Part shown: piece after piece, positions 4,733 through 58,500 of the stretch
Layout of the letters: each line of letters begins with the position of its first letter
How positions within the stretch are numbered: position 1 is the stretch's first letter
Assembly: GCF_004210375.1 (NCBI RefSeq)
Contig: NC_134831.1
Span: forward strand, 98,825,522 to 98,889,521
Length of the DNA stretch: 64,000 bases
Reading direction: 5' to 3'
Origin: Tachypleus tridentatus
Lineage: Eukaryota
Made by a program: the position numbers and the translations under genes
Notes under the pieces: model-generated
The model's database searches: none
What the model was told of the DNA's origin: nothing
Seen by the model: only the letters and a program-made list of their open reading frames with translations

Positions 4733-4902
4733 GTAAGAAAAAAGAAAACTGTAGTTTCGGAATGGTAATAAACAATACATAAGTTAAATTATTGTAATTT
4801 GTAAAGAACGAATTTCACATATACGAAATACGATTTATCTAGAACAAGGTAAATATGAAAACTGTTTGTTGCTCAGTGTCAACAGTTTTCATTGACAGAG
4901 AA

Positions 4903-5178
4903 AAGCGGCCCGGCATGACCAGGTGGCTATGGCACTCGACTCGTAATCCGTGAGTCGCGGGTTCGAATCCCCGTTTTACCAAACATGCTCGCCCTTTCAG
5001 CCGTGGGGCGTTATAATGTGACGGTAAATCACACTATTAGCTGGTAAGAGTAACCCAAGAGTTGGCTGTGGGTGGTGATGACTAGCTGACTTCCCTGCAG
5101 TCTTGCACTGATAAATTAGAGACTGCTAGCGCAGATAGCCCTCGTGTAGCTTTGCGCGAAACTCAAAACAAACCACGT
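4903..5178 (+). mobile_element. SINE family A copy (~270 bp, tRNA-derived)
   Basis: The head ggcccggcatgaccaggtggctatggcactcgactcgtaatccgtgagtcgcgggttcgaatcc carries an A-box-like TGGCCAGGTGG and a B-box/T-loop GGTTCGAATCC. The body reads gtcaatcccactattcgttggtaagagtagcccaagagttggcggtgggtggtgatgactagctgccttccctc. The tail reads gcgcagatagccctcgtgtagctttgcgcgaaa(c/t)tcaaaacaaa. Confidence 0.85.
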
Positions 5179-6391
5179 CTTATATCATCCTTGTAGTCTT
5201 CTGTCTTATTCTTTCGTCCATTTATAGCTGTCGAACCGCTTGATCGATTGCGAACACTTAAGAACACGACTTTCAAAGTTTTTTATGAAAACAGAAATCT
5301 CGGAAAGCGGAGTTTCAAAGTTAAAACTGTTCTGAAGCAACAACTGCGAAAGAGACCACTTCCCTACCCAAAAAAAAACACAGTAAACGCTACGATAATG
5401 TTAAACGTACCTTCTGGTACCGTTAACAAGACAATATACAATAATTTGTAAGTGACGGAAACTCAGGTTGTTAGCTACATCTGGAAATCAGCAGTTAGTC
5501 CAATAAACTAAAACACAACGATCCAGTTTGACCATATACTTTGACCACGTATGTCTTAATTTTTGGTTAAATGTAGGTGACCTCCAGTAAAAGGTCAATG
5601 GACAGTTTGTCAAGAAGTGTGGTTTAAAATAGATTTGATCGTTCGTTACAGAAGCTTGTTGAAAAATAAACTGGTGTTGGGTAATTATGGCCACCAGGTT
5701 TAGCAGCATCTGTAATGGAGTTCAAAGTGCATTTCAGTTCATTGTTCACATAAATATTGAATATCTCTGTTCATGCCTTTTCCTGGCCAATTTATTCTTA
5801 TTACACACCCGGCTCTCGTTTCATACGTACTGAAACCGTTTATCTGTCTGAATACATAACTTTAAACTTTTTTTCCAAACATGTTATGGAGCAACCCATT
5901 TGGAATACGTGGGTCATTTCAAAAACAAAACTGTATATTTTTGGAAGCATAGAAAAAATAAATGTACTCTAATATTTCAGCAACAAATATTCAGATTACA
6001 CGATTACAACTGCTTCTTCAACTCTGTTTAAATAGAAATTATTTCCCAGGGTAGGAATTGTAATTTTATAAACCATACATCGATTAAAATGTGCAATGAA
6101 ACGTATGTTTAAGTATTCTTTACTTTCCCTATTTTTTATCGTTAAACATTGTGTGTCATATTACCACTGTGAATATATCGGTGATATGTAGAACGTGTAT
6201 TATTGTAATTTTATTTTATTAACCATATAACTTCTTTCTTATACGGTGGTGTAACAAATGGACAGGCAGGAAGTAAGTGGAGAGGGAAAGAAACCATAAG
6301 ATAGATTTATAATCTTTACATCGGTAGTAAATAAGTTAAATCGGTAGCTGGGTATATGTTTAAGATGTATACAAGTTCTCTGAAATTTGTT

Positions 6392-6642
6392 TGTTTTGAA
6401 TTTCGCGCAAAGCTACTCGAGGGCTATCTGCGTTAGCCGTCCCTAATTTAGCAGTGTAAGACTAGTCATCACCACTCACCGCCAACTCTTGGGCTACTCT
6501 TTATCAACGAATGTGATTCACCGTAATATTATAACGCCCCCACAGCTCAAAGGGCGAGCATATTTGGTGCGACCGGTATTCGAACCCGCGACCCTCGGAT
6601 TACGAGTCGAACGCCTTAACACGCTTGGCCATGCCGGGCCGT
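6392..6642 (-). mobile_element. SINE family A copy
   Basis: Reverse complement of the family A consensus, running from tail (gaatttcgcgcaaagctactcgagggctatctgcg) to head (ggccatgccgggcc). Confidence 0.85.
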
Positions 6643-7960
6643 TCTCTGAAAGGAAAACGTACACTTCTCCGACATGCTAATTAAAGCTGCTAAGATATAC
6701 TAAAGCTTAGTGTGTTAGATTTAGGTAAGAAAGAAAGATTTTATTAAAACAGCACATAATTTCCAATGAGAGGCAAGATAAGATGAGTCACGACTCGTAG
6801 TAGATGAGTCATATTCATATGAAATAACTGTTGTAATGAAAGTTTTCTATCCGTTGCGGAAAATATATTCTAACAATGAGTTGAATGTTTATAATAATTC
6901 TAATCTCAGCCATTCCTGGGAACGAATATAGATGGTATAATAGCCGCATGTGTACTAACGTAATAATTCAGGCCTTCAGGTATATCTTTTGTCTCCTACA
7001 AGTCACTGCCAAAGATGCCTTTCGTTAGATGTTAGTTAGTTTAGCATGACAATGAGACAAGTTCACCAGAGACACTGTTCTTACATACAGTGTAGTGAGT
7101 TAAATTACGACTTGAAAGATGAAAATCACAGCTAGCGAAAAGTTCAATCTTTGTTAAAAGCAGAAAGTTAGCGAAACATTGAAATCTACTTTTTGGTTAA
7201 ATTACTTGTTGGAGATGTTTTCTTATTTTTGTTATGTTCCTCTTTAGGGATTTCATAACAGTTGGTGTGTAAAAACAGTATATGAATGAAAAACTACAAT
7301 AATGCCCTCGGTTTCTATTGTGAGAAACAATCCATGACATTGGCCTTAGAGATTCGAACAGTAAATGTTTTCTAAACGATGACCCTATCACGCGAGAAAT
7401 TTCCGTTTCGCTCGTAGTTCTGAAAATTGTTATTTGTTTTCAAATTATCTCGTGCTCTCTTCTGATTTACAAGAACTAGCACTGAAAATGTATTGAAATG
7501 CTAGATTTTCTTGGCAACACTGTTTTTATGTATTAAGTCTAACATTGTGCAAGACTTCCAAACAGAACTACGTCTAGCGAGTCTAACATTGCAACAGGAC
7601 TTCTGAAGCGGGAAACCAACTTATTAAATTGAGTTTTTACTTGGTTTTCTTTTTATTTATTTACAATGAAAAATAATGGAATTAGCCATATAAAAGATGC
7701 AATTAAAACAATCATTAACATGAATATATGTAAAAACTTAATTTTTGTTGCCATGGTGACCTGTTATACGATTTTAACAAGCGAGTTTATTCATTTAATT
7801 GGAAGAATATGTAGTTTCGGTCTCAATGGCAGCTTACCGACTCGCCAGCCAAACAGCTGGAGTTCCCTAGTCCAGTGAGCAGGCGAAAGATGGCCAGTTG
7901 TCAGCCGTAAGGGCTTTATCCATTTCGCCGAACCACATAATGAGATTGTCTAATAACGAG

Positions 7961-8165
7961 ACAACCTTGTTACTAACCAGCATGGCCAGGTGGTTACAAC
8001 CTTGTTACTAACCAGCATGGCCAGGTGGTTACAACCTTGTTACTAACCAGCATGGCCAGGTGGTTACAACCTTGTTACTAACCAGCATGGCCAGGTGGTT
8101 ACAACCTTGTTACTAACCAGCATGGCCAGGTGGTTACAACCTTGTTACTAACCTGTTTGGCCCAG
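7961..8165 (+). repeat. 35-bp tandem repeat (about 5.5 copies) built from the SINE A 5 prime head plus 16 bp of flank, fused to a full SINE
   Basis: The unit acaaccttgttactaaccagcatggccaggtggtt recurs at 7961, 7996, 8031, 8066, 8101 and 8136. The last unit runs directly into the SINE head cagcatggccaggtggttaaggcactcg at 8166. Confidence 0.85.
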
Positions 8166-8428
8166 CATGGCCAGGTGGTTAAGGCACTCGACTCGTAATC
8201 CGAGGGTCGCGGTATCGAATCCTCGTCACAAAAAACAGGCTCGCTCTTTCGGTCGTGAGGGCGTTATAATGTGACGGTCAAGACCACTGTCCGTTGGTAA
8301 AAGAATAGCCCAAGAGTTGGCGGTGGATGGTAATGACTAGCTGCCTTCCCTCTAGTCTTACAATGCTAAATTAAGGACAGCTAGCGCAGATAACTCTCGT
8401 GTAGCTTTAAGTGAAATTCAAAAAACAC
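8166..8428 (+). mobile_element. SINE family A copy
   Basis: Full head, body and tail (catggccaggtggttaaggcactcgactcgtaatccgagggtcgcggtatcgaatcc ... gcagataactctcgtgtagctttaagtgaaattcaaaaaac). Confidence 0.85.
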
Positions 8429-8469
8429 TTAAGGATGCTTTTGTACTTATGTGTTTTGTTTGTAGTTAA

Positions 8470-8560
8470 GTACAAAGGGTTTTGTGTACTGTGCCCACTA
8501 CGGGTATTGGAACCCGTTTTAAGCGTATGAATGCATAGATCTTACTACTGTTCCACAGGG
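8470..8560 (-). mobile_element. SINE family B copy
   Basis: gtgcccactacgggtattggaacccgttttaagcgtatgaatgcatagatcttactactgttccacaggggc is collinear with the 2398-2487 copy. Confidence 0.5.
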
Positions 8561-8689
8561 GCATGAGTTAGGGATAATTTCATCTTTTGAAAGTTAAGTT
8601 TTAGAATTTAATTCAATAGAAATGGCATACGCTTTTTATTTGAACAGTTTCTCTGGATAATAGAACGCAAGTGTTGGTAATTGAAATAA

Positions 8690-10920
8690 AAACTTTTGAA
8701 AAATTACTGTTAAGTCATAGCAACCAAACGGTACAGAAATATCATGTTTCTGTTTATTTAATAACTTTTGAAAAATCACTGTTAAGTCATAGCAACCAAA
8801 CGGTAGAGAAATATCATGTTTCTGTTTATTTAATAACTTTTGAAAAATCACTGTTAAGTCATAGCAACCAAACGGTAGAGAAATATAATGTTTCTGTTTA
8901 TTTAATAACTTGTGAAAAATCACTGTTAAGTCATAGCAACCAAACGGTAGAGAAATATCATGTTTCTGTTTATTTAATAACTTGTGAAAAATCACTGTTA
9001 AGTCATAGCAACCAAACGGTAGAGAAATATCATGTTTCTGTTTATTTAATAGCTTTTGAAAAATCACTGTTAAGTCATAGCAACCAAACGGTAGAGAAAT
9101 ATCATGTTTCTGTTTATTTACTAGCTTGTGAAAAATCACTGTTAAGTCATAGCAACCAAACGGTAGAGAAATATCATGTTTCTGTTTATTTACTAGCTTT
9201 TGAAAAATCACTGTTAAGTCATAGCAACCAAACGGTAGAGAAATATCATGTTTCTGTTTATTTACTAGCTTTTGAAAAATCACTGTTAAGTCATAGCAAC
9301 CAAACGGTAGAGAAATATCATGTTTCTGTTTATTTACTAGCTTTTGAAAAATCACTGTTAAGTCATAGCAACCAAACGGTAGAGAAATATCATGTTTCTG
9401 TTTATTTACTAGCTTGTGAAAAATCACTGTTAAGTCATAGCAACCAAACGGTAGAGAAATATCATGTTTCTGTTTATTTACTAGCTTTTGAAAAATCACT
9501 GTTAAGTCATAGCAACCAAACGGTAGAGAAATATCATGTTTCTGTTTATTTACTAGCTTTTGAAAAATCACTGTTAAGTCATAGCAACCAAACGGTAGAG
9601 AAATATCATGTTTCTGTTTATTTACTAGCTTTTGAAAAATCACTGTTAAGTCATAGCAACCAAACGGTAGAGAAATATCATGTTTCTGTTTATTTACTAG
9701 CTTTTGAAAAATCACTGTTAAGTCATAGCAACCAAACGGTAGAGAAATATCATGTTTCTGTTTATTTACTAGCTTGTGAAAAATCACTGTTAAGTCATAG
9801 CAACCAAACGGTAGAGAAATATCATGTTTCTGTTTATTTACTAGCTTTTGAAAAATCACTGTTAAGTCATAGCAACCAAACGGTAGAGAAATATCATGTT
9901 TCTGTTTATTTACTAGCTTGTGAAAAATCACTGTTAAGTCATAGCAACCAAACGGTAGAGAAATATCATGTTTCTGTTTATTTACTAGCTTGTGAAAAAT
10001 CACTGTTAAGTCATAGCAACCAAACGGTAGAGAAATATCATGTTTCTGTTTATTTACTAGCTTGTGAAAAATCACTGTTAAGTCATAGCAACCAAACGGT
10101 AGAGAAATATCATGTTTCTGTTTATTTACTAGCTTGTGAAAAATCACTGTTAAGTCATAGCAACCAAACGGTAGAGAAATATCATGTTTCTGTTTATTTA
10201 CTAGCTTGTGAAAAATCACTGTTAAGTCATAGCAACCAAACGGTAGAGAAATATCATGTTTCTGTTTATTTACTAGCTTTTGAAAAATCACTGTTAAGTC
10301 ATAGCAACCAAACGGTAGAGAAATATCATGTTTCTGTTTATTTACTAGCTTTGAAAAATCACTGTTAAGTCATAGCAACCAAACGGTAGAGAAATATCAT
10401 GTTTCTGTTTATTTACTAGCTTTTGAAAAATCACTGTTAAGTCATAGCAACCAAACGGTAGAGAAATATCATGTTTCTGTTTATTTACTAGCTTTTGAAA
10501 AATCACTGTTAAGTCATAGCAACCAAACGGTAGAGAAATATCATGTTTCTGTTTATTTACTAGCTTTTGAAAAATCACTGTTAAGTCATAGCAACCAAAC
10601 GGTAGAGAAATATCATGTTTCTGTTTATTTACTAGCTTTTGAAAAATCACTGTTAAGTCATAGCAACCAAACGGTAGAGAAATATCATGTTTCTGTTTAT
10701 TTACTAGCTTTTGAAAAATCACTGTTAAGTCATAGCAACCAAACGGTAGAGAAATATCATGTTTCTGTTTATTTACTAGCTTGTGAAAAATCACTGTTAA
10801 GTCATAGCAACCAAACGGTAGAGAAATATCATGTTTCTGTTTATTTACTAGCTTGTGAAAAATCACTGTTAAGTCATAGCAACCAAACGGTAGAGAAATA
10901 TCATGTTTCTGTTTATTTAA
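8690..10920. repeat. 72-bp satellite, about 31 tandem copies
   Basis: The exact period is 72 bp (aaaaatcact at 8771 and again at 8843). The unit is tcactgttaagtcatagcaaccaaacggtagagaaatatcatgtttctgtttatttactagcttttgaaaaa, with the variants ttttg/ttgtg and taataact/tactagct. Because 72 is divisible by 3, the tandem copies stay in frame, and this is the sole source of the long ORFs at 8636-10291, 8671-10368 and 10345-10938. Confidence 0.95.
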
Positions 10921-11149
10921 TGCGTATTTCTTTTTCATGTTTTATTCAAATATCTTGCATAAGATGGACATGTTTTGAATGGCTTAGTTTACCACGTTTT
11001 TTAAAAACTGACGAGTTTATATCTTAACGTGTGGATGAAATCAGAGCTTAGCAACTTTATCTAATGGTTAGTATAGTTGGTTGAGGATCTCGGATTTGAG
11101 ATGTATACTACCAAATATTTTCTGTTGTAGGTGTGTTATAAGAATCGCA

Positions 11150-11260
11150 GTCAATCCCATGCACTAATCGGTTAAGAGTAGCCACTTTACTCGGCAAGTG
11201 CTTTAACTGGTTGCCTTCCTTCTGGTCTGCAGTTCAGAGTCAGGCATAACTATGTATGAA
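11150..11260 (+). mobile_element. ancient diverged SINE A body fragment
   Basis: gcagtcaatcccatgcactaatcggttaagagtagccactttactcggcaagtgctttaactggttgccttccttctggtct parallels the SINE A body gtcaatcccactattcgttggtaagagtagcccaagagttggcggtg...ctagctgccttccctctagtct. Confidence 0.4.
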
Positions 11261-12318
11261 TCATATGAAGACGCAAACAAATATGGCTAATGATCGTCTA
11301 AGAATAGCAAAAGGCACAACCTTTCTTTGAATAGAACATACTCCGCAGTAGTCATGACGCTCTACTCATTCCATATGCTTTAATCTCAACGAAAATTCTC
11401 ACAATTTCTTAAGAATGCAACCTGCTTGTTGACTTACCCCCACAGCTGTAACTTGAGGTATGTACACTGAAGGGAATCCTTGAACCCTCTTGTTTTTAGA
11501 TACGTGCAATCTGCGCATTTTTGCATCTGAACATATTGTTATTTTAACATTTTCTCGGGACTCCTCAAAGCAAATTACAGGTTGGCGGAATGTAAAGAGA
11601 TTCAACCACAATAAAAGGTCTCACGGCCGAGCTTCTGGTCGTCATGGACCAGTAAGCAAGAAATTCGCTCGTTAAGAAGGAGGGGGGGAATACATCAGTG
11701 ATGCTTTAAGAGAGTCGTGAAAAATGTATCATATCAGAATATTTTTAATTGCTCAGTAACACTAAAACTTTGGTATCTAGCGGAAAGGTACAACAAACAA
11801 AAGATCAGGTTACTGTGAAGAGAGAACCAGGTTAGTGTAAACTTAAGCCTATTTTCGATTCCTTTTTTTTTTTTTTTTTATCTATAACTAATATATTGCA
11901 CGCATTTAGTTCTGCTGTATTGTGTTTATGTTCGTACGTAGAAGTATCATAAACAGCAGTGATGAAGTGAGGAAATATTAATCATTATAATTATATGTAC
12001 GATATCATGCACTAGTGTTAATGTCCATTTCGTATTGACCACAAATAACTTTGCAAAACGAAGATGCGTGGGTATACGTCAATGTCGAAAATATTCTGTA
12101 TGTTTTTTTGTTTTTTTGAGAGTCGACTGTGTATTTATAAATGATCCGAGGTCGTTGACAGTGCACAACTGTTAACATTTTTCTTCATGTTCGTCTTTTA
12201 CCCAATCTAACAAAATGAAAATAACGAAACCGTGAATTCATCAACTAAGACTATGCTTTCTACGTTCACCAAGTGGTGGCGCTTACAATAAAGTTTGCTC
12301 TCGATTCTTCAGTACTAG

Positions 12319-12592
12319 TCCCGGCATGGCCACGTGGTTATAACACTCAACTCTTAATCTGAGGGTCGTGGGTTCGAATCCCCATCAAACCAAACATACT
12401 CGCCCTTTCATTCGTGGGGGCGTTATATTGTTACAGTCAATCCCACTATTCGTTGGTAAAAGAGTAGCCCAAGAGTTGGCGGTGGGTGCTGATGACTAGC
12501 TGCCTTCCCTCTAGTCTTACACTGCTAAATTAGGGACGACTAACGCAGATAGCCCTCGAGTAGCTTTGCGCAAAATTCAAAACAAACAATCC
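12319..12592 (+). mobile_element. SINE family A copy
   Basis: cccggcatggccacgtggttataacactcaactcttaatctgagggtcgtgggttcgaatcc ... cgcagatagccctcgagtagctttgcgcaaaattcaaaacaaaca. Confidence 0.85.
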
Positions 12593-14430
12593 CAGCCCTG
12601 GAGCGCGCCCCACAGTTTGGAAAACACTGCTCTACATTACTGCTACACGCGATGGTCACAGCTTCCTTTACCTTTGTTATCCATTTTTACTAATACTACT
12701 GTGTATATGTTATTGTTTATACACAATTAGAAACTAATCGCCTAAATACAAGTAGCTTACATAACAACTTGAATATTTTCCCTGCTTAAAAGGATACAAC
12801 ACTGTTTAATGAAATGATGATCGAAATACTATTTAGACATCTCCTTACAACAAGAGACATATTACGGCCGACTACACCTATCCACAAAAATTTGATTTAA
12901 CGTTCCCCCTCATATTTTTTAAGGCCAAAGAAAGAATTACAAACACTGCTTTCGGCAACTTTAAACAGTTTTCTATTTTTTTCCCTCTGTAGCGACATAA
13001 GGAAAAGTGAATTTCAGTTTCTACTTTGATATGGTATAAAAGGATTAGTTAGGATGTTGTGAAAAACACAAATACTGGTGACGTTTATTTAACATACTTT
13101 AACCTTTTCCAGTGTTAAACTGAATGACCATTTCTTACTGTTTTATTCGGCACAATGTTATCATTATTATGTTAATATTTATGAAACCTGGAATTTCAGT
13201 GCTATAAACTACAGTTACAGGTTTACACATCGACTGTACAGCGGTTTGAACTAAAATCCAGATTTGAAATAAAAATAAGGTAGAGATTCATAACAATAAA
13301 ACTAAACATGTATAATTTATTCGTGAATGTGCAGAAAGTAAAAATAAGGTGTAACAGACGACATTGGTTTAAGGTCACGAACAACAGCAGGTGGTGTTTG
13401 TCTTCACTCAGGCGCGGTATAAGTGGGTAATGAGGCGTGATTTCTTCACTGAAGACAAATAGTTGATGTTGCTAGTAAAAATTATTGTGGACGCGTGCAC
13501 TTTTGTCATGATTCCCGAATGCCATGATTAAGACTAAACATCTTAGTTTAATAATATGTTATTTAATAAGGCAGTAGTACTGCAAACTGAGGTAACTGTT
13601 TCTCGCGGTTTTTGTTGCTTGTTCGTTGAAAATGTTTTGATTTGAATGTACTATGCTACAGGCATCACTTTAAATTAGCAAGAGCTTGTAACTGGCGAAT
13701 TGGAAGCCTCCAGTTTGTAGATATGGCTTTTAAAACTTACTTTTTAGATATTGGTACAAGTGTCATTCGATCAGTTTTTTTTAATGTTGTTAAGGTAGAA
13801 CACTCGTATAGAAACCTAATTTTTACAGCCAGCTAAAACGAACGCCAAAGATTTTTTGGTGGATTTTTGTGAGTGTGCGACACGCAAGTTAACCACCCAT
13901 AATTTAGTGGATATTAGAAACTCAAAGTCTGTGTATTAGGGGCTTGTATTCCAATTTATTTGTGGTGGAAATAAATAAGCTTTCTTTCCTCGGCGACAAC
14001 ATTGCTTTATTCAAAGATGGCCTACAACAATACAATATAAATATTCCTACAACGTGAAACTATAGTTATTACCCAATAATCACAAACGTCTTGCGGTGAA
14101 CTCTGTTTATATCAGTGTTGTATAAACACAAACTGTTGTAAATTATACATAAATGTTTAACATTTCTAAGTCGCAGTGTTAAGATTTAAAAGTATAGTAA
14201 TGTACCGAGGTAACATAAAGTATTTAGAACTTCAAACAAAAAAACGTTAGTTATTTTTAATTATCTTCCTACTGTATTTTGTACAACTTCATATTTAGAT
14301 TAACATATGAGAATTTGATAACAAATCGTAAGTAGTTTGAAAACATTATGTACATTAAAATAATTCTGAAGACATCTTGTGCAATTTGAAAGAAACAGCG
14401 GCCATTTAACTTTCACGCTGAAACAATGAC

Positions 14431-14507
14431 TTTCTGAGTTGATTGATTGATTGATTTAGTGTTTTATGGCACAAAGCAGCGAGGCTATCTGCGCCAGGAC
14501 TTTCTGA
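14431..14507. mobile_element. 62-bp SINE-tail-like fragment insertion flanked by a 12-bp target-site duplication
   Basis: gactttctgagt occurs at 14431-14442 and again at 14496-14507. Between the two copies lies ttgattgattgattgatttagtgttttatggcacaaagcagcgaggctatctgcgccag, where the ggcacaaagcagcgaggctatctgcgc part matches the SINE tail module. Confidence 0.55.
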
Positions 14508-14796
14508 GTGATATTCTATTAGTACTTTATATTGAGGTCTTCAGGTCGAAGTAGCAGCCAATTTAGGTGCTGTAAAAGTAAACCAAGAATATACACACAG
14601 TTAACCATGATCAGAAGTAGTAGTAACTTATATTTTTGTTATATTCACCCGAATTAAATTTAAGCTTCAAGAATATTAGACAATAGGTGTATTGGCCTTC
14701 CAAAAGCGACATGATCACCCAGAGTGGTTTATAACTAATAGGGAATTTAATATACACGTTTGTACAGAGACACCTTGTAGGGTGACTTTAATAGTA

Positions 14797-15165
14797 CCGT
14801 GTTTCTCCGATAATAAGACCTACCCATAAAATAAGACCTAGTGTGATTTTTGGGGATAGTTTTAATATAAGCCCTACCCTTAAAATAAGCCCTAGTTAAG
14901 AGTGGCAGGAAGAGGAAAGAATTTAAAAAAAAACAAATTAATTTATTAATTTGTTTAATAGTTAGTTAATTAGTTTGTTTAAGTATTAATCAGTTAGTTT
15001 AATAGTTTAATAATAGTTTATTTTAAATGGTTAGTTTAATAGTTTTACTTTGTAACTTCATTTTTTTAATATATCAAAATAAGACATCCCCCGAAAATAA
15101 GCCCTAGTGTCATATTTTGGAGTGAAAATTAATATAAGCCCTGCCTTATTTTCGGAGAAACACTG
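14797..15165. mobile_element. MITE copy 1 (~369 bp), TA-flanked, Tc1/mariner (Stowaway-like) type
   Basis: The terminal inverted repeat is ccgtgtttctccgataataagacc ... ccttattttcggagaaacactg. TA is present on both flanks. Internal aataag(a/c)cct(a/g) subrepeats are present. The whole element is near-identical to 51466-51818. Confidence 0.8.
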
Positions 15166-15761
15166 TATGTACAAGATGATGAAATACAATAATTTAAGGG
15201 AGTCACCTCCAAGGGCGGAAAATCAATTGAAATTGTCTCGGCGCGCGCGCGTCATACGTGAACGCATGAGACCGTTTGGCACTGTCGAGAACTTGATAAA
15301 AGCAGGCTCGCTGAAAGTCGTTTTATGTGAATGAGGGGCGGTCACGCGTTAGTATTGTATATAATAATAGTAAGAAAAAGATACTTGTAATAAGTTCAAG
15401 TGTTCTTACTGAACGCTGTGTAACCATTTGTGAACTGAATTTTTGAGAGGTCTTTTACAACGTGTTCTGTTTGACCGAGTATTTTGACAATAGTAGTACC
15501 ATAGTTTCCATTACAAAAAGGTTCATAAGTATGCGACGACTATCGCATGCCATTTTCTCCCTACTTGCTTTCCACATTAATCTACTGAGCTAAGGTGATG
15601 ATTTACCTAGTGCCTTGAGCTGACTCATACAAGTTTGTTTTTCAACATTAAGTTTAAGAGATATTCTTGCCTTAAATTCTGTATTCCTAATTTAACATAT
15701 CGTTATGATGTCGGTGTATGAATATTTTGCTTCAAAAACGACATGTTGCAAAAACTTCTCA

Positions 15762-18448
15762 AAGGTAATAATCTATTAGTAGCATCACACTGCTTACCAG
15801 ATGTCAAAATATAGTTCTGATCAATAATCTATTAGTAGCATCACACTGCTTACCAGATGTCAAAATATAGTTCTAATCAATAATCTATTAGTAACATCAC
15901 ACTGCTTACCAGATGTCAAAATATAGTTCTGATCAATAATCTATTAGTAGCATCACACTGCTTACCAGATGTCAAAATGTAGTTCTAATCAATAATCTAT
16001 TAGTAGCATCGCACTGCTTACCAGATGTCAAAATGTAGTTCTAATCAATAATCTATTAGTAGCATCGCACTGCTTACCAGATGTCAAAATGTAGTTCTAA
16101 TCAATAATCTATTGGTAGCATCGCACTGCTTACCAGATGTCAAAATGTGGTTCTGATCAATAATCTATTAGTAGCATCACACTGCTTACCAGATGTCAAA
16201 GTGTAGTTCTAATCAATAATCTATTAGTAGCATCACACTGCTTACCAGATGTCAAAATGTAGTTCTAATCAATAATCTATTAGTAGCATCACACTGCTTA
16301 CCAGATGTCAAAATGTAGTTCTAATCAATAATCTATTAGTAGCATCACACTGCTTACCAGATGTCAAAATGTAGTTCTAATCAATAATCTATTAGTAGCA
16401 TCACACTGCTTACCAGATGTCAAAATGTAGTTCTGATCAATAATCTATTAGTAGCATCACACTGCTTACCAGATGTCAAAATGTAGTTCTAATCAATAAT
16501 CTATTAGTAGCATCGCACTGCTTACCAGATGTCAAAATGTAGTTCTAATCAATAATCTATTAGTAGCATCGCACTGCTTACCAGATGTCAAAATGTAGTT
16601 CTAATCAATAATCTATTGGTAGCATCGCACTGCTTACCAGATGTCAAAATGTGGTTCTGATCAATAATCTATTAGTAGCATCACACTGCTTACCAGATGT
16701 CAAAATGTAGTTCTGATCAATAATCTATTAGTAGCATCACACTGCTTACCAGATGTCAAAATGTAGTTCTAATCAATAATCTATTAGTAGCATCACACTG
16801 CTTACCAGATGTCAAAATGTAGTTCTGATCAATAATCTATTAGTAGCATCACACTGCTTACCAGATGTCAAAATGTAGTTCTAATCAATAATCTATTAGT
16901 AGCATCACACTGCTTACCAGATGTCAAAATGTAGTTCTGATCAATAATCTATTAGTAGCATCACACTGCTTACCAGATGTCAAAATGTAGTTCTGATCAA
17001 TAATCTATTAGTAGCATCACACTGCTTACCAGATGTCAAAATGTAGTTCTGATCAATAATCTATTAGTAGCATCACACTGCTTACCAGATGTCAAAATGT
17101 AGTTCTGATCAATAATCTATTAGTAGCATCACACTGCTTACCAGATGTCAAAATGTAGTTCTGATCAATAATCTATTAGTAGCATCACACTGCTTACCAG
17201 ATGTCAAAATATAGTTCTGATCAATAATCTATTAGTAGCATCACACTGCTTACCAGATGTCAAAATGTAGTTCTGATCAATAATCTATTAGTAGCATCAC
17301 ACTGCTTACCAGATGTCAAAATATAGTTCTAATCAATAATCTATTAGTAGCATCACACTGCTTACCAGATGTCAAAATGTAGTTCTAATCAATAATCTAT
17401 TAGTAGCATCACACTGCTTACCAGATGTCAAAATATAGTTCTAATCAATAATTTATTAGTAGCATCACACTGCTTACCAGATGTCAAAATATAGTTCTAA
17501 TCAATAATCTATTAGTAGCATCACACTGCTTACCAGATGTCAAAATGTAGTTCTGATCAATAATCTATTAGTAGCATCACACTGCTTACCAGATGTCAAA
17601 ATGTAGTTCTCATCAATAACCTATTACTAGCATCACACTGCTTACCAGGTGTCAAAATGTAGTTCTAATCAATAATCTTAGTAGGATCACACTGCTTACC
17701 ACATGTCAAAATATAGTTCTAATCAATAATCTATTAGTAGCATCACACTGCCAACCATATGTCAAAATGTAGTTCTAATCAATAATCTATTAGTAGCATC
17801 ACACTGCTTACCAGATGTCAAAATGTAGTTCTAATCAATAATCTATTATTAGCATCACACTGCTTACCAGATGTCAAAATGTAGTTCTAATCAATAATTT
17901 ATTGGTAGCATCACACTGCTTACCAGATGTCAAAATGTAGTTCTAATCAATAATCTTAGTAGCTTCACACTGCTTACCAGATGTCAAAATATAGTTCTAA
18001 TCAATAACCTATTAGTAGCATACACTGCTTACCAGATGTCAAAATGTAGTTCTAATCAATAACCTATTAGTAGCATACACTGCTTACCAGATGTCAAAAT
18101 ATAGTTCTAATCAATAACCTATTAGTAGCATACACTGCTTACCAGATGTCAAAATGTGGTTCTGATCAATAATCTATTAGTAGCATCACACTGCTTACCA
18201 GATGTCAAAATGTAGTTCTAATCAATAACCTATTAGTAGCATCACACTGCTTACCAGATGTCAAAATGTAGTTCTGATCAATAACCTATTAGCAGCATCA
18301 CACTGCTTACCAGATGTCAACATGTAGTTCTGATCAATAATCTATTAGCAGCATCACACTGCTTACCAAATGTCAACATGTAGTTCTGATCAATAATCTT
18401 TTTGTAGCATCACACTGCTTACCGGGTGTCAAAATATAGTTCTAATAT
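15762..18448. repeat. 56-bp satellite, about 48 tandem copies
   Basis: The period is 56 bp (cttaccagat at 15961 and again at 16017). The unit is tcaataatctattagtagcatcacactgcttaccagatgtcaaaatgtagttctaa, with the variants a/g (aaaatatag or aaaatgtag), ctaatc/ctgatc and catcacac/catcgcac. Copies become progressively more diverged toward the 3 prime edge (17600-18448). Confidence 0.95.
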
Positions 18449-19089
18449 TTGTCATTCCTCTACGATTATATTGGCTCTGGTTGTCGCGTAACTTGCTGAT
18501 TTGCATATTCAAAATATTTTTCGTATAACTTATTCAACCTTCTACATATACAGTATATGGTGGTTAAGGTCTCTGTCATATATAAACACACTAATGTTTT
18601 TTACCTGCATATACTAATATAGAATTTTTCAGAATTGTTATTTTTCATACCATTTTGGTAAAAAAAAAAGTTAAATTATTTTCACTTCTTCGAGTACCCA
18701 CTGTACAGTCACCTGTGCAGAGTAACACATTGTCTTCTCATTTGCAAAATGTAAGGTGTTGTTTTTCCACTGTAAAGGTAACGATTTCTCTTGTATTTCA
18801 TTGTGGAAATTGGAATCACTAGTCACGTGTATAATGCTAGTTGCTCTCCTGGACTTTTGTTAATGGTGTAAATGGATATTTAGATTTTTTTTAAATCTAC
18901 ACATGTAGATGAACGTTTGACACGTAAGTTGTTTTACATCACATTTTCAATAAATTTTTGATATGAGTTCTCGAATTTTGAACGTTCCTGTAAAACAAAG
19001 GACAAAACGTTGTCCTACTGGCCAGTGTAGTTTTTCTCATCCTAGTGTTTCTCCAGGTATTTACTGCGCTGAATGATGGAAGGTTTTTT

Positions 19090-19348
19090 TCTTTTTGAAT
19101 TTCGCACAAAGCTACACGCCGACTATCTGCGCTAGCCGTCTCTAATTAGCAGCGTAAGACTAGATGGAAATCAGTTAATCATCACCACCAACTCTTAGGC
19201 TACTTTTTCCAACGAATAGTGGACTTAACCGTCACATTATAATGCCCCCACGGCTGAAAGGACAAGCATATCTATGACGGGGATTCGAACCAGCGACCCT
19301 CGCATTACGAGTCTCGCGCCCTAACCACCTCACTGGCCATCCTGGGCC
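19090..19348 (-). mobile_element. SINE family A copy
   Basis: Reverse complement from tail (gaatttcgcacaaagctacacgccgactatctgcgctagc) to head (gggattcgaaccagcgaccctcgcattacgagtc ... ggccatcctgggcc). Confidence 0.85.
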
Positions 19349-19352
19349 GATG

Positions 19353-19520
19353 CTGGAAGGATACGTACAATTCATTGACGTCGTCAAGTGTTCTGAAGCT
19401 GATTCCTCTGGAAGGATACGTACAATTCATTGACGTCGTCAAGTGTTCTGAAGCTGATTTCTCTGGAAGGATACGTACAATACATTGACGTCGTCAAGTG
19501 TTCTGAAGCTGATTCCTCTG
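19353..19520. repeat. 55-bp tandem repeat, 3 copies, abutting the SINE head
   Basis: ctggaaggatacgtacaattcattgacgtcgtcaagtgttctgaagctgattcctct recurs at 19353, 19408 and 19463. Confidence 0.8.
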
Positions 19521-21939
19521 GTGTTGCAGGTAATCCATGCTCGGTGTGAAGGTGAAAGACAACTAAGTTATTATCAACTCCATACTGGGAACGTGACTAT
19601 TCTCTGGAAAATTGTTTTGGACCGTTGCCCAAATTGTCGTAACGTATTCTTTTTTCTTTAAGATTAACAATTGGATAATCGAGACACTATAATACAATCA
19701 AATTGATGTGATTGTTTTTACTAAGGTAGTTAAAATAAGACAGTTTGCCTTACTTTTGTGATTGAAATCTACTTTTGAAATGGTGTATAGTATATCTAGA
19801 TATGGTAAATAACAACCAACGATTATTACCATTTAGTAAGTCACAGGTATTCCACAGATTAACTAGTTCCTGAGAGGTAAGATCGAGGCAAGAAACTTAC
19901 CCTTTGATTCAGAGACAGTTTTTTCATGATTATTCGAACACTTCTTTTGATTTTATCAATTATGGTTAAGATTTGATATAGTATTTGTATTTTACCACAT
20001 GGTATTTTCATTATGAAGTTTTAGATGGTTTTAGTTTTATGTATTGTTTATTCAGAAATTTTCAAATTAAATATTTCTTCCTGTTATCTTAGTATATACA
20101 AAATTGTTTGTTTTGGACACAATTCTTGAAGTACATATTTTTTAGCAAAATGCTCCATCTTGTCTCGCTGTATGTCATTGATCGAGATGACACCTCGTGG
20201 TGCGTTGTCTTTCAACTGTATCTGTACAGTTTACCATATCTTACACAAAAACTGTCCACAGATTCCGAGCCCCTCTTTCTGGGTCTACAAGTTTAATGAA
20301 ACCATTCAGAATCCAGGTTTTTAAAACAACCAGTGTTGATAATTTTAAGAAAAGTTTTGTAACAAGAGAAGTAAGCCTCAAGAGGTCGCAGTGAAGAGTT
20401 GGTAATGTACAGTATTAATGATTGTAATAACGTGTGATGTTATGTAGTGACTTGGTTAAAAACGTGTGATGATATATCTTGATTTGTAGTTGTACTGAAA
20501 GTAGTTAGGATTACAATGTCAGACTTCCTTCGCAGCGTTAACTGTGTGCTGCGACTGATAGGTAAATAACGTGAACATGTATCTGTTTTATTGTAGTAAT
20601 CCGTTAAGGTTTTAGTCGGGTAGATAATTCACAATACTTATTCATACAGTGCTTCTATCAGTAAACATTTGTACACGTGTATATTAATACCAATAATATA
20701 ATTCTCCTCATGACGTAACAGTCAGTTCCTTTGTGTGTGGAGTTTTGTCTCGTACTATTAAAGTGTTGTATATGTGCATGTTTTATTTTACCGTTATCAA
20801 AGGTTTTACTTTACTTACATTCAAATGTTTGTATTTCTATTCATTGTATTTCATTTTCCTATAAATATTTTCTATAACAATTTATTTTGTAAGAATATTT
20901 TTATAGTGTTGTTTTTCATCTTGTTATGGAGATTTCTGTGTATTATCTTATGTAATACAGTATACATTATGGTTGAATAGGGGTTTCGTTTCTGTTCTCT
21001 TGCAACCACTTGTTTTTTTAACTTAGAACACTTCGCCTTTTGAAGGGTCAATTTTGACATCTCGAGCTGTGGTATCAACATTAGAATTTTTGTATGGTAT
21101 TACTGTTGGTTATTCCGACTGACCATATTACATATCCACTTTTACTTAACTCGTCAGTTTTATTTTAAAGGTTATTTTTTATCTGTAATCACTGTTAACG
21201 TGTTTTCATTCGTTAAATGGCGTTTGTGAGGTTGCACTCGTGATTTTCTTAAAGGGTTTCAGCTGTAATGATTTAATGATTTTTTTTCTATCTAAAGAAC
21301 TGTTCTCTGTTCTTGTAAGTGTGAAAGAAAACTAAACCACAATTTAATTAATATGGTTTTGTAAACTTTATTGAATTTAAAGTTAAAATTAACTGTTACT
21401 TGTGGACAAACCTGAAGGAAAGATGAGAGTATTGTATGAACTAACCATCTTTTTTGCTGAGTTCAGTTGGTATTACTTGAAAACTACGTGTTATCGCTAA
21501 AATGACTCACTTGTCAGTTTGCTATGTTGTGTGTGGAAAGTTTACCTCTCCACTTGATGGTTCAGCAATATGTCTGACAGCTTATGTTACAAATTTGGTT
21601 TCGGTGCTCATGGTTGGCAGAGCACATATGGTTCATTGTGTAGCTTTAATTCGCAACAAGCGAGCGCACAAAGCATTTAAAATGTATTTCATTAAAACAG
21701 TAAAATGTGCAGTAGCTTAAAACCAAATAAAGGACTTAAGGTTCCCACAATGTATTTCCAATCATCATACGTATTCATATTGCGTTTAATTATGTATGTT
21801 TTTATATGGTATAATACCAGTGCACTATCACAAAAACAAAACAAAGCTGAAATACAGTGAATCAAGGAAAGTGGTTATTGAATCATTTTGTCACTGACAA
21901 GGGTAAAAGGAAACTTGTCATTAATGCATCTTTAAAGTA

Positions 21940-22200
21940 AGACTAAAACGTTTGCACAGTTTTGTTTTCGTACAAAGCTACTCGAAAAGGTTTAAGTGTC
22001 AAAAACGATAGACTAGAAGAAAGGCGGACAGTCAATATCACTTGCTTTTAACTCTTGTGATACTCAAATCAGATAGTGGGATAGACTATCACATTATGAC
22101 ACTAACAGTTGAAAGGACAACATGCTTGAAGGTGAAATTTATACCTGTGACCCACAATTTGAGTTTCACACTAACTTCCAGGCCCTGCCAGACTCGCTTG
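21940..22200 (-). mobile_element. old degraded SINE A-like copy
   Basis: gttttcgtacaaagctactcgaaaagg ... cacattatgacactaacagttgaaaggacaacatgcttg parallels the reverse complement of the SINE A tail and body (cacattataacgcccccacggctgaaagggcgagcatg). Confidence 0.35.
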
Positions 22201-24117
22201 CGCAAACCAATAGAAAGGTAATTATCATTTTTAATATGATGCCTGTGACCAGGCCAAACTACTATTAGACATTTCAATCACTTCTCAATTCATTGTAACT
22301 CAAGGTTATCCAATCAGTGATCAGGTCTAAAAAAGCAGATTGTTCACCAAGTTGGACTTTCCACACTAGCTAGACAGCAACAAGTCTATAGACTTGCAAT
22401 GCTAGTGTTTCAAGTTTCGATCTCTCGTGATGAATAGAACATGTACTATGTGGCTTCATTCTCTGAAGAAAAATGTAAAGTACAGAGCTTAACTGTTTGA
22501 ATCTTGTTAATGGACCACAAAAGATTTTGTACGTTTCACAATATGGAAGTTAGTCAATCACAAACTGTTGCTAATTGGATACACGTCTCTCTGAAACCAG
22601 TGGAACAGAGGACAAAACGGGCCAGCAGTGTAGGACATTAGTAAAAAAGTTTCGTAAGCCTGACTAGTATACGAAACATCAGATGTTGCAATTTTCTCGC
22701 GGAAAGGGACAAAACAGCTCGCTGGCAACAGTGCCATAAACACGTGTAGCAGATTAACACTGCAAATTAATATCTTTACGGACGAGCTGCACTTTACCCG
22801 CCCCCTAACGGATCAGTAGTAAGTCTGAGAATTTATGGCTTTGTCTTAGTGTTTACTGAACTATAATTTTATTATTGCTTATTTTGTTAAATATCGCACA
22901 AAACTACTTGAAGGTTGTCTGTCTTAGTTGTCTCTAGTAGGACTTACAGTCACATCGTAACGACACTGGTTCAAATGGAGCAGATCTGGAGTCCAGTGAC
23001 TTTACCACTAAAATAACTAGATCATATGAATCAAGCTATCACACATAACAAAAATGTTTGTCTAATGTTACGAATTGCTGTGAGGAATTGGCCAAACCAA
23101 TTTTGATGAAATTTGATAGAATTGGAGTGGATCTCGCAAACTTATCTGTGAAACGGATAAGTAATCTGAAAACATTTCGAGTGTGTTTAGCCGTTTCAAT
23201 TTTACCTCGTTAATGTCGCGACTGGGCGCTCAAAACAATATATATATATATAGGGCTATATCCCAACAAATCGTTCATCCAGGGCATAAGCAAGTTTGTA
23301 ATATTACTTTACAAACCAATTTCTTTTCTTGTTATTTTATGTATTGTACGTAAAGTAATTTTTATCACGATCTCTAACTTGTCAGGACTGGTTGGTTGGT
23401 ACTTTTTTTTGTGTATGTGTACAGTTATTGTCACTTGTCACAGTATTCGTCCGCCGTGTTTTAATTTTTATTATCAACTAAGGACTTGTTGACTTGCACT
23501 GTAAAACAGTTCACCTAATTTTATCTGACATACCTATCCTACAACCCACGAATTAAGATAACTGTTTTTCATTTCTTGCTTTTCAAGTTCATGTGTTATT
23601 GTGTTATAACCTACAGTGTAATTTGCTCGTGATTCAAAACATGGGCACGTTTTAGTGACGTCACGACAGTACAAGTTATTATAACGTTAAGCATAGCTTC
23701 CAGACATTATTTTAGTATCTATTGGTTTACTGACAGACCACACACTACTGCAGAGTGGTATAAATGATTACGACATGTGACTCCCTCTAGGTGTACTTCG
23801 GCTTCCTTTTGGGGAAAAACATTTAACAAAATTCTTCAAATACTAAGAAATCTTGTCTTTATATGATTATAAACTAGAATTTGCAATTCAGTATTCGCGG
23901 CGGAAACAGCCTGTTGTACAACAAAAACAAATTATTTTAATTGTATTTTGTTAGCTCACGTTGTTTAGGTTAATCACCGTATCGTCCGTCCATTGGGTCA
24001 AACTTCCATCCCTGACATGCAGTTCCCATTAAAGCCAAAGTCCAGTTGTCATACTCTCATATTGCTTACCTATTTTATTTTATTCAAACGTTTGTAGTTA
24101 ACGAGTTTCAATGATCA

Positions 24118-24215
24118 TCTCTTATTTTTATGTAATCATACAGTCCTCCTTACCCACACTATCATACAGTCCTCCTTACCCACACTATCATACAGTTCTC
24201 CTTACCCACACTATC
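24118..24215. repeat. 26-bp tandem repeat, about 3.5 copies
   Basis: tcatacagtcctccttacccacacta is repeated in tandem. Confidence 0.7.
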
Positions 24216-24257
24216 TCCTCAGTGTCGCTGACACGCACGATAAATTGTTTCTATAAA

Positions 24258-25345
24258 CTATTAAATCTTGGGTTTTACAAGCTGATATACTGGTATATAT
24301 ACACTTTATAAAGCCCACGACCGTGGTAGAATATTATTAAATCTTGTGTTTTACAAGCTGATATACTGGTATATATACACTTTATAAAGCCCACGACCGT
24401 GGTAGAATATTATTAAATCTTGTGTTTTACAAGCTGATATACTGGTATATATACACTTTATAAAGCCCACGACCGTGGTAGAATATTATTAAATCTTGTG
24501 TTTTACAAGCTGATATACTGGTATATATACACTTTATAAAGCCCACGACCGTGGTAGAATATTATTACAATCTTGGGTTTTACAAGCTGATATACTGGTA
24601 TATATACACTTTATAAAGCACACGACCGTGGTAGAATATTATTAAATCTTGTGTTTTACAAGCTGATATACTGGTATATATACACTTTATAAAGCCCACG
24701 ACCGTGGTAGAATATTATTACAATCTTGGGTTTTACAAGCTGATATACTGGTATATATACACTTTATAAAGCCCACGACCGTGGTAGAATATTATTACAA
24801 TCTTGGGTTTTACAAGCTGATATACTGGTATATATACACTTTATAAAGCCCACGACCGTGGTAGAATATTATTACAATCTTGGGTTTTACAAGCTGATAT
24901 ACTGGTATATATACACTTTATAAAGCCCACGACCGTGGTAGAATATTATTACAATCTCGGGTTTTACAAGCTGATATACTGGTATATATACACTTTATAA
25001 AGCCCACGACCGTGGTAGAATATTATTACAATCTCGGGTTTTACAAGCTGATATACTGGTATATATACACTTTATAAAGCCCACGACCGTGGTAGAATAT
25101 TATTACAATCTCGGGTTTTACAAGCTGATATACTGGTATATATACACTTTATAAAGCCCACGACCGTGGTAGAATATTATTACAATCTCGGTTTTACAAG
25201 CTGATATACTGGTATATATACACTTTATAAAGCCCACGACCGTGGTAGAATATTATTACAATCTCGGGTTTTACAAGATGATATACTGGTATATATACAC
25301 TTTATAAAGCCCACGACCGTGGTAGAATATTATTACAATCTCGAT
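24258..25345. repeat. 77 to 79-bp satellite, about 14 copies, with block-wise variants
   Basis: The unit is (attaaatcttgtg | attacaatcttggg | attacaatctcggg)ttttacaagctgatatactggtatatatacactttataaagcccacgaccgtggtagaatatt. The three variants occur in consecutive blocks along the array. Confidence 0.9.
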
Positions 25346-25564
25346 AAATTACGTTTCTACAAAGAATTGCTTCCAATGTACATATTTCTCTATTTTAATT
25401 AAGAATATATCAAGCAAAGCCTCACTCTTCAAGTTTATTCAGATATTTTTTATATATTATCCCAGTCGATCATTGGTCAAGATATGATGTACAATATATT
25501 CATATTTAATAGTTTTCTGACACTAAATTATAATTCGTTTAAACATAAAATATTCGCTCACTTT

Positions 25565-25972
25565 ACCCCAGTGGCGCAGCTGTATATCTGCGGATTACAT
25601 CGCTAGAAACCTGGTTTTTAAAACCCGTGGTGGGTAGAGAACACAGATAGCCCACCGTGAAGCTTTTGTTCTAAACCCGTGGTGGGTAGAACACAGATAG
25701 CCCACCGTGAAGCTTTTGTTCTAAACCCGTGGTGGGTAGAACACAGATAGCCCACCGTGGAGCTTTTGTTCTAAACCCGTGGTGGGTAGAACACAGATAG
25801 CCCACCGTGGAGCTTTTGTTCTAAACCCGTGGTGGGTAGAACACAGATAGCCCACCGTGTAGCTTTTGTTCTAAATCCGTGGTGGGTAGAACACAGATAG
25901 CCCGCCGTGTAGCTTTTGTTCTAAACCCGTGGTGGGTAGAACACAGATAGCCCGCCGTGTAGCTTTTGTTCG
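25565..25972 (+). repeat. SINE family B head followed by a 7-copy 50-bp tandem array of its tail module
   Basis: 25565-25625 reads ccccagtggcgcagctgtatatctgcggattacatcgctagaaacctggttttta (B-type head). The 50-bp unit aaacccgtggtgggtagaacacagatagcccaccgtgaagcttttgttct then recurs at 25621, 25673, 25723, 25773, 25823, 25873 and 25923. Confidence 0.8.
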
Positions 25973-27784
25973 TAACTTCAAACATAAGATCTTCCGTAAA
26001 ATTTAAGTTATGAACAGCATTCATATAGCATGCAACTTATACTGTATATCTAACTGTGGCCGGTAATAGGATCGAGTCTCTGAAACTTGCCAGAATAAGA
26101 TGTTGTTTATAGAAGATTTCTAGAAACTCGCTTATTCGATGTGTTGTTGGTTAGTGGTCATCGATTAGTGGTAAAAAACCCAACAATTTCATGTTGTTCA
26201 TTCTTATGGTGCTTTCCCTCATGTGACGGAATATCACTAAATCTTGAAGCTGGACATTGTTACACCGTAATTATATGAACAGTAAAATCAATAACATAGT
26301 TCATACGTTAGATTATTTTACGACCACATGTCCCCTTCAATTTTCCTTCTGCTTTTAACTTCGATCTGCAATAACATTTAACTAGAAAACCGAAGTTATA
26401 TTTTATTAAACATCTTTACGTATGTAATATTGTTAGTTATTTTGGTAAAACGAAATAAGAGAATGTTGGTTGTTTTGGAGCTTTTTAAAACAAAATCGAA
26501 ACTAAAGTTGTTACTGCTGTCGTGTGGGTAATTCCTGGTATCAATATGTTCATAATACTTTAAATCCTCGTGTTATAAGGTTACCAGTCGTGACCTGTAA
26601 GCTGATAACATACATACGAATCGTAAAACGAGACTATGGTATCAGTTCCCTTAAGACGTTGGTAGTAAACAACTTAAAGTCGGCCAGTCTTTGAAGTACG
26701 AATTGTCCGTTGTTTTGGATCTGATAAGCATTGTTTTCGCTAACAGCACACTGATGTACTTGTTAATGTAGAGATGCATCGTGAAACTTGCATTTGTGGA
26801 GCCATTTGAAACAATGTCTATAGATATCGTGCTGTGAATTAAAAAACAGTTTAGTCAAACAATTGCACGAGCATGCATTGCCTCCCCCTCGCGGTGGGCG
26901 GGCAACCCTTCCATTTTCATAAGACCCGCATCTGGCACATCATGGGAAACGTTTGCCTATTGTTTACCTTAAACCTGATAAACTGGTTCGAGTATGCTTA
27001 ACTCGTACTTAATTTGATTATTAACTTAGTCCGTTGAAAATAGGGTTAGTTTGTATCGTGCAAAATGTACCCATCACCGAGAGTTCCGGGCTCTGAACTA
27101 AAGAACTAAAGTTTATTCTTAGAGAGGGAAAAAAAAGAACAAGAAAAACAAACGTCGTGTCTGTAGTATACTTTCAGCTATGTTTAAGTAATTGGGCCTA
27201 ACGAAGGTTGAACTTTATGATCACGATTAGAGTAAGTAAATTAAATTATAGAACTAGCCAATCTTTGGCCTACTTTACGAAAGTTTTTAAATACAGAAAA
27301 TGTGTTTAGTGGTCTATATAGGTCGCTATCCTTTAGTTAAAAAGTGTTCGACGTTTACTAGTTGGTATCTAAAATGATTAGAAACACGAAAGCAAGTGAA
27401 CTTCTGCCTTGTTATAACAGAATAGCCCGAATCAAGGCACACAAACGTATAGAACCAGTTGATAAACTTTTAAACTGGTTGTTCAAGGAAGAAATAATTT
27501 CATGAAGAGATTTGTTGAATACAAATGTGGTATTAAATTAGGCTATTTGTTTGTTTGTTTTATTGCTAAAAATGGAGAAACTGAAGGCGATAACCTAGTA
27601 TACAATAGTCTTGTATTCTATATTCAGTTGTTTGTAGCCCCTAAACAACAGTCTGTAATGGGCCCTGACTTACAATCTACAGCATGACCAATTTTCCATG
27701 TTCTAAGCAGTATGTTTATAGAGCAGTAACGAACTCTAAAATAGTCCATCCATATCCTATAGTGGCAGTGTCCTGCACGCTCGC

Positions 27785-31851: not shown

Positions 31852-31902
31852 TATGTCAACCCCATCGTATCTGTTAACTCTGTTATATTCAACTTTGTGA
31901 GC

Positions 31903-43307: not shown

Positions 43308-43309
<2 letters not shown>

Positions 43310-58465: not shown

Positions 58466-58500
58466 AAGTTTTTGCGATGTAATTTTGAAATTAATTACAG

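Follow-up and report, generated by a model that had tools for sequence, protein, structure and literature searches.

Passer and other pogo-type transposons

MITEs are commonly recognized by a length below ~800 bp, a lack of coding capacity, terminal inverted repeats (TIRs) combined with the target-site duplication (TSD) typical of the superfamily, and a moderate to high number of homogeneous copies. The human MER2 group consists of such MITEs, derived from Tigger. In older classifications, pogo elements were placed within Tc1/mariner. In the scheme of Gao et al. (2020; PMC7386202), pogo is a sister superfamily inside the IS630-Tc1-mariner group. One of its members, Lemi1, gave rise to the Arabidopsis MITE Emigrant (Feschotte and Mouches 2000, in PMC7386202).

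Passer, a family of the pogo superfamily, is defined by the DD35D signature, short TIRs, duplication of TA, and POGK-like annotation (PMC7386202, PMC9976928). The published TIRs of PasserB are CCGTGTTTCCCCGAAAATAAGAC (Schmidtea mediterranea) and CCGTGTTTCCTCATATATAAGACA (PMC9976928), and the left end of S. mediterranea PasserB1 is given as TA-CCGTGTTTCCCCGAAAATAAGCCCTATGAAGATTTTTGG...ATATAAGCCCTCCCACGAAAATAAGCCCTAGTTAAAA and also as TACCGTGTTTCCCCGAAAATAAGCCCTATGAAGATTTTTGG...ATATAAGCCCTCCCACGAAAATAAGCCCTAGTTAAAA (PMC9976928, Table S1). Passer is reported from horseshoe crabs, with 130 copies in Tachypleus tridentatus (38 of them intact), 59 in Carcinoscorpius rotundicauda (14 intact), and 18 in Limulus (1 intact); the representative elements have CCGTA-type TIRs (PMC9976928). 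Transposition in human cells has been shown for fish Passer (PMC9976928). The main text of PMC7386202 and that of PMC9976928 contain no description of Passer-derived MITEs.

Two copies of a short element in a horseshoe crab intron

The window (the whole 64-kb stretch of horseshoe crab DNA analyzed here) carries two copies, A and B, of a short repeat. Both are very probably MITE insertions, an internal-deletion derivative of a Passer-family (pogo) transposon of the IS630-Tc1-mariner group. The features that delimit them are as follows.

14797-15165, + strand: MITE copy A, non-coding, 369 bp
51456-51818, + strand: MITE copy B, 363 bp
14795..14796: TA, left flank of copy A (putative target-site duplication)
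15166..15167: TA, right flank of copy A
51454..51455: TA, left flank of copy B
51819..51820: TA, right flank of copy B
14797..14819, + strand: left TIR of copy A, CCGTGTTTCTCCGATAATAAGAC
15143..15165, - strand: right TIR of copy A, reverse complement CAGTGTTTCTCCGAAAATAAGGC, agreeing with the left TIR at 20/23 positions, second base mutated
51456-51478 and 51796-51818: left and right TIRs of copy B, matching at 22/23 positions

The two copies lie on the same strand, 36.7 kb apart, and are 96.5% identical over 368 columns (blastn, E 4e-175), which agrees with the earlier note on this DNA, where two near-identical full-length copies were described. The coordinates of copy A given there (14797-15165) stand, and the start of copy B moves 10 bp to the left, from 51466 to 51456. 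Between the copies there are 6 substitutions over 362 aligned positions (K2P 1.7%) and two indels, one of 7 bp and one of 1 bp, both in A/T runs. The 1.7% divergence, an uncalibrated figure from just two copies and an indication only, suggests a relatively young burst of transposition.

On all four sides, the similarity breaks off precisely at a TA, so that the TA flanks reported earlier for both ends of both copies are borne out. Beyond these dinucleotides, the flanks of A and B are unrelated to each other, and the 300 bp of each flank of both copies have no second match within the window. No third copy or fragment of the MITE is found in the window either (blastn, word size 7). The pair could alternatively represent a segmental duplication, or fragments of a larger composite repeat with inverted-repeat ends that arose by chance, and the presence of only two copies, in the same orientation and in one intron, would suit such an origin. 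It is nevertheless extremely improbable, given that the similarity ends at the same nucleotide beside TA on every side, that the flanks are unique, and that independent relatives (at least 12 contigs, described below, and the published Passers) end at the identical terminal nucleotides and are TA-flanked. With the two copies read as separate MITE insertions, the flanking TAs presumably reflect duplication of the target rather than a preference for particular flanks.

The TSD of PIF/Harbinger (Tourist-like) elements is the 3-bp TWA, and that of piggyBac is the 4-bp TTAA. The 3-bp flanks of the copies differ (gta/tat, cta/tag) and there is no TTAA; PIF/Harbinger, piggyBac, and hAT were rejected on these grounds.

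At 369 and 363 bp, the copies have the length and the lack of coding capacity that characterize MITEs, and they combine TIRs with TA on 4/4 flanks; the copy count is 2 in the 64-kb window. ORFs contained entirely within the MITE do not exceed 26 aa, and tblastn with the transposases P0007 and P0008 finds no homology anywhere in the window; the element is therefore a derivative and not an autonomous Passer.

The TIRs are 23 bp long, as previously proposed (copy A, 20/23 matching positions; copy B, 22/23), and are of the CCGTGTTTCTCCGA type. When up to 3 mismatches are allowed, the 21-nt terminal word matches the window four times, versus 0 matches expected (100 shuffles), and all four matches are ends of copies A and B. 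The right end of copy A carries CACTG in place of CACGG, so the earlier reading of this end as ...AAACACGG has to be replaced by ...AAACACTG. Because the second base of its right TIR is mutated, copy A may no longer be mobilizable.

Subterminal motifs and the AT-rich core

Inside the TIRs, each copy consists of two motif-bearing subterminal regions separated by an AT-rich core; the coordinates below are those of copy A.

14813..14896, + strand: left subterminal region, with two ~30-bp modules (14813-14842 and 14867-14896) that are 90% alike
14921..15075, + strand: AT-rich core (approximately element positions 125-280)
14931-14956: 26-bp palindrome in the core
15078..15145, + strand: right subterminal region, with motifs that start at element positions 283, 301, and 338

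Each copy contains the motif ATAAG[AC]C seven times, in every case on the + strand (element positions 17, 35, 71, 89, 283, 301, and 338), and 14 of the 21 occurrences of this motif in the 64-kb window fall in the two copies, which span 732 bp. Each of the left ~30-bp modules contains two RTAAGMC motifs that are 18 bp apart, and the modules themselves are spaced by 54 bp, with element positions 17-46 resembling positions 71-100 (90%). Element positions 16-82 recur as a direct repeat at 282-349 (79% over 68 bp, E 1e-10), and the only inverted motif is the one inside the right TIR. The aataag(a/c)cct repeats listed in the earlier note are thus present, but they are not inverted between the ends: 7/7 lie on one strand and form a direct repeat. 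There is no long hairpin, because the subterminal repeats are direct, and a reading of the element as a long hairpin or foldback was rejected.

The layout of the subterminal motifs is asymmetric; a mirrored layout is expected for TIR-proximal binding sites.

The core, recognized as AT-rich from the start, contains tandem repeats with periods of 8, 11, 12, and 24 bp within 14937-15023 (TRF). It can be aligned, though weakly, with the 3' UTR kept in two related MITEs from metagenome contigs (L009 and L004, see below).

Measured from the left end, the motifs are found at 17/35/71/89, and measured from the right end, at ~87/68/32, all on one strand. The same offsets and the same strand are found in autonomous relatives, namely the composite element from the Ga0307474 metagenome, the L033 element, and the element of the lizard Zootoca vivipara (L030). 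The MITE therefore appears to retain the full cis-acting architecture of its parent.

Host gene and neighboring repeats

Both copies are located in a long intron of a GAS2-like gene, which also contains several other repeats.

4757..56877, + strand: host intron of the GAS2-like ("pickled eggs") gene, ~49-52 kb, containing both copies in sense orientation
4059-4756, 56878-56973, 58500-58583, and 59894-61261: exons of the GAS2-like gene (tblastn)
30226-31856: Tc1 element in the same intron, with a degraded transposase on the - strand (Pfam DDE_3 and HTH_Tnp_Tc3_2)
4909-5173, 6386-6638, 8165-8424, 12320-12589, 19085-19330, and 31905-32078: examples of SINE copies
34172-34449, 36380-36629, 38700-38896, 43600-43851, 50708-50916, and 56380-56625: further examples of SINE copies

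A weak additional tblastn match at 53561-53626 may shorten the ~50-kb intron. The long exon (59927-61264 in the protein comparison) is closest to the "pickled eggs" GAS2-like protein of Limulus polyphemus (63%; a T. tridentatus protein is at 57%), and the exon that encodes the CH domain (4059-4756) is 81% identical to the Limulus sequence and 72% to that of Tachypleus. No protein identical to this GAS2-like product was found in the database, the best match being the one from Limulus at 81%. In the CH-domain exon, the frame shifts between 4448 and 4451, and a straight reading runs into stop codons. This frame change reflects either a pseudogenized ohnologue or an assembly error, and it may account for the missing identical database protein. 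Neither the MITE nor a Passer transposase is present in four Limulus loci (101.5 kb), which are paralogous or too diverged (78.6% even in the exon).

The intron contains three satellites: one with a 56-bp unit at 15655-~18200, which begins 490 bp past copy A and comprises at least 45 units that are 95-98% identical, one with a 72-bp unit at 8549-~11000, and one with a 76-77-bp unit at 24187-25482. The SINE, which is tRNA-related and ~270 bp long, occurs on both strands of the window in no fewer than 12 copies; these copies are 77-92% identical to those in the Limulus polyphemus loci L001, L002, L038, and L039. A near-perfect hairpin at 46821-46936, whose 55-nt arms (95% complementary) enclose a 6-nt loop, is perhaps a foldback element or a further MITE.

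Nothing suggests a function for either copy in the GAS2-like intron. Exaptation of the element, as an intronic regulator or as a hairpin or small-RNA precursor, would be compatible with the sense orientation of both copies in the intron of one gene and with the predicted folding of the MITE as single-stranded DNA (-41.1 kcal/mol versus -24.6 kcal/mol in shuffles, z = -4.0). However, this fold comes from TIR pairing only, with a centroid of -2.9 kcal/mol, and neither Rfam (at the gathering threshold) nor ARAGORN has any match in the window. In addition, the substitutions and indels between A and B, the TIR mutation included, look unconstrained, and the host gene is itself frameshifted. Exaptation is accordingly very unlikely, and the copies are treated below as MITE insertions derived from Passer.

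Relatives in metagenome contigs

An exact-word scan for GTGTTTCTCCGAWAATAAG covered metagenome contigs, prokaryote genomes, and viral contigs, and blastn then sorted relatives from chance seeds. Of the 21 metagenome contigs matched, 12 contain true relatives. The other 9, along with 6 prokaryote matches, were dismissed as chance, as they have neither the preceding TACC nor subterminal similarity, and so was the single viral-contig match, which agrees in the 19-nt seed alone. A second scan of viral contigs with the subterminal pattern gave 0 matches, and a literature search with the letters of the TIR returned nothing but unrelated primers.

Four of the contigs with relatives carry MITEs of comparable size. 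Contigs L009, L005, and L008 represent one locus (99.4-100% mutually identical), and L004 is a separate locus.

L009, 3422-3832: related TA-flanked MITE, 411 bp (same locus as L005 and L008)
L004, 1597-1944: related TA-flanked MITE, 348 bp

These MITEs are 87-90% identical to the horseshoe crab MITE in the left ~68 bp and the right ~128 bp. They differ from it in lacking one left 18-bp motif and in keeping the last 14 transposase codons, LQDIPEDDDIIVFE-stop, which agree with the C-termini of intact transposases, e.g., ...DIPEDDDMIVLE in P0007. The MITEs in L009 and L004 are intermediate deletion derivatives.

Eight further contigs, all from Ga0307474, have 7 clearly delimited element ends, each of them TA-flanked, and overlap to give a TA-flanked element of ~1797 bp. 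The TIR of this composite, CCGTGTTTCTCCGAAAATAAG, is the same as the right TIR of the MITE at 21/21 positions, and its ends are 80-86% identical to those of the MITE. Its degraded ORF contains the Pfam domains HTH_Tnp_Tc5 (3e-10) and DDE_1 (1e-10), which is the pogo-type pair, and the corresponding pseudo-protein is 59-64% identical to intact relatives of 431-440 aa. Across the two copies and their relatives, TA flanks 9/9 left and 13/13 right ends, and the terminal nucleotides are the same.

The four MITE-bearing contigs and those from Ga0307474 are regarded as eukaryotic because they carry transposon debris. Apart from the MITE, they have nothing in common with the window, and the horseshoe crab SINE is absent from them. 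Their GC content is 38-42% (L004, L005, L008, and L009) and 27-33% (Ga0307474), compared with ~35% in the window. Judging by sequence content, the contigs with MITE relatives are not from a horseshoe crab.

The autonomous Passer lineage

The sources of transposases related to the Ga0307474 pseudo-protein include Zootoca vivipara, Crotalus, Xenopus, Hyla, bats, Stegodyphus mimosarum, Trichuris suis, and Helobdella; no horseshoe crab proteins are among the 51 transposase matches. The Z. vivipara protein is annotated as "pogo transposable element with KRAB domain." The following elements were delimited.

L033, 290-2087 (also L034 and L035): apparently intact Passer element, 1.8 kb, with a 432-aa DD35D ORF (P0016)
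L036, 2578-4442: element of the spider Stegodyphus mimosarum, 1865 bp, TIR CCGTCTTTTTCYGAAAATAAG
L030, 395-3475: element of Zootoca vivipara, TIR CCGTGTTTCCCCTTTTTTAAG

The elements of the intact relatives are TA-flanked, have the termini CCGT[G/C]TTT, and contain the same subterminal motifs as the MITE. The protein alignment identifies D175, D279, and D315 (numbering of P0016) as the catalytic residues, i.e., the DD35D spacing, and the C-termini of the intact transposases follow the pattern ...D(V/I)PE(E/D)DDM.V.E, as does the remnant in L009 and L004. The element in L033, L034, and L035, which has an intact ORF, is possibly active. It encodes the same protein, P0016, in each of three independent datasets, ENA ERZ27256860, JGI 3300031718, and Logan SRR8558719; L034 is from Ga0307474.

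The terminus CCGTGTTTC is common to the MITE, its lizard, spider, and metagenome relatives, and the planarian and leech PasserB elements. Among published elements, PasserB is the closest to the MITE: S. mediterranea PasserB1 and the PasserB of Helobdella robusta align to its left 100 bp. Like the MITE, PasserB (1738 bp with a 431-aa protein in S. mediterranea) has TA flanks, TIRs shorter than 30 bp, a CCGTGTTTC start, and an ...ATAAGAC end; it also has ATAAGMCCTA motifs at distances from each end that match those in the MITE, and its left ~100 bp can be aligned base for base. Unlike PasserB, the MITE has no transposase gene, is 363-369 bp long versus 1.6-4 kb, and differs at TIR positions 10 and 15.

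A longer, degraded transposon that shares the MITE TIR exists in the form of the Ga0307474 composite (21/21). Among the representative horseshoe crab Passers in PMC9976928, none is an autonomous element with the exact MITE TIR; the TIR of Limulus PasserC, CCGTATTTTTCAGAATATAAGAC, agrees with that of the MITE at 18/23 positions.

Assignment to Passer and proposed mechanism

The MITE shares with Passer the TA target, TIRs shorter than 30 bp of the CCGT(G/A)...ATAAG type, and termini homologous to those of elements whose DD35D transposase carries HTH_Tnp_Tc5. It does not encode a transposase of its own of 400-500 aa, which is what an autonomous Passer would have. In being short, TA-flanked, and non-coding, and in sharing just its termini with a pogo-type autonomous element, it resembles Emigrant and MER2, which come from other pogo families (Lemi and Tigger), have unrelated TIRs, and reside in other hosts.

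The core of the earlier interpretation, a non-coding MITE that targets TA and relies on a transposase supplied in trans, fits the absence of any ORF longer than 26 aa, the unique flanks, and the TA at the ends of the relatives, with the trans component being deduced. Its attribution to Tc1/mariner holds at the level of the IS630-Tc1-mariner group, but the lineage is pogo/Passer (HTH_Tnp_Tc5 and DDE_1, DD35D) and not Tc1 proper. A parent and mobilizer of the Tc1 type (DD34E, DDE_3) would also produce TA flanks and short TIRs, which are common throughout the group, and the same window contains an obvious candidate, the Tc1 element with its DDE_3 and HTH_Tnp_Tc3_2 remnant at 30226-31856. This element belongs to the IS630-Tc1-mariner group as well and is of the cut-and-paste kind; members of the group typically target TA. 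Its TIRs, however, are 53 nt long (94% complementary, starting ACATACAGTTACGTCAGAAAGTG) and have no similarity to the MITE, a difference already pointed out in the earlier note, and its domains are DDE_3 and HTH_Tnp_Tc3_2 rather than DDE_1 and HTH_Tnp_Tc5. Moreover, the longer elements that share the MITE termini all encode the pogo-type HTH_Tnp_Tc5 and DDE_1 pair. A Tc1-type source is thus very unlikely, and a Passer-type parent is strongly preferred.

The MITE very probably arose from a Passer element by deletion of the transposase gene, leaving the left ~100 bp and the right ~130 bp joined by an AT-rich stretch that is probably a remnant of the former 3' UTR. What it kept are the presumed requirements in cis, i.e., the 23-bp TIRs and the complete subterminal RTAAGMC set. 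A Passer transposase from elsewhere, with its Brk/HTH_Tnp_Tc5 DNA-binding domains and DD35D core, would bind the TIRs and the subterminal motifs; it would then excise the MITE and reinsert it at a TA dinucleotide, with duplication of the TA. We infer this mobilization in trans by analogy with the behavior of the family, given the activity of fish Passer; its timing is tentative.

Possible horizontal transfer and implications

Horizontal movement of the Passer lineage or of the MITE itself between horseshoe crabs and other eukaryotes, taken together with a strand-asymmetric subterminal layout, is a tentative joint reading, which we consider somewhat less probable than not. The transfer part draws on the 87-90% identity of non-coding termini, the agreement of TIRs at up to 21/21 positions, and the location of the relatives in contigs that have a different GC content and lack the horseshoe crab SINE. 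The close relatives of the transposase are scattered over lizards, snakes, bats, frogs, a spider, a whipworm, a leech, and a planarian. With their near-identical termini in unrelated eukaryotes, the metagenome relatives are a further candidate case of horizontal transfer of a pogo element. The motifs, on one strand at offsets that hold across phyla, would point to an asymmetric synaptic complex, which is not described for pogo elements.

The importance of these findings lies mostly in annotation, with little beyond it. A previously unclassified short repeat of horseshoe crabs can now be placed, with the confidence stated above, in Passer/pogo, and the MITE consensus could supplement horseshoe crab repeat libraries. 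For gene transfer with Passer, already functional in human cells (PMC9976928), the motif layout would provide a concrete minimal cis-element. For the family itself, the two copies indicate that Passer, known through its autonomous copies, very probably also yields MITEs in chelicerates.
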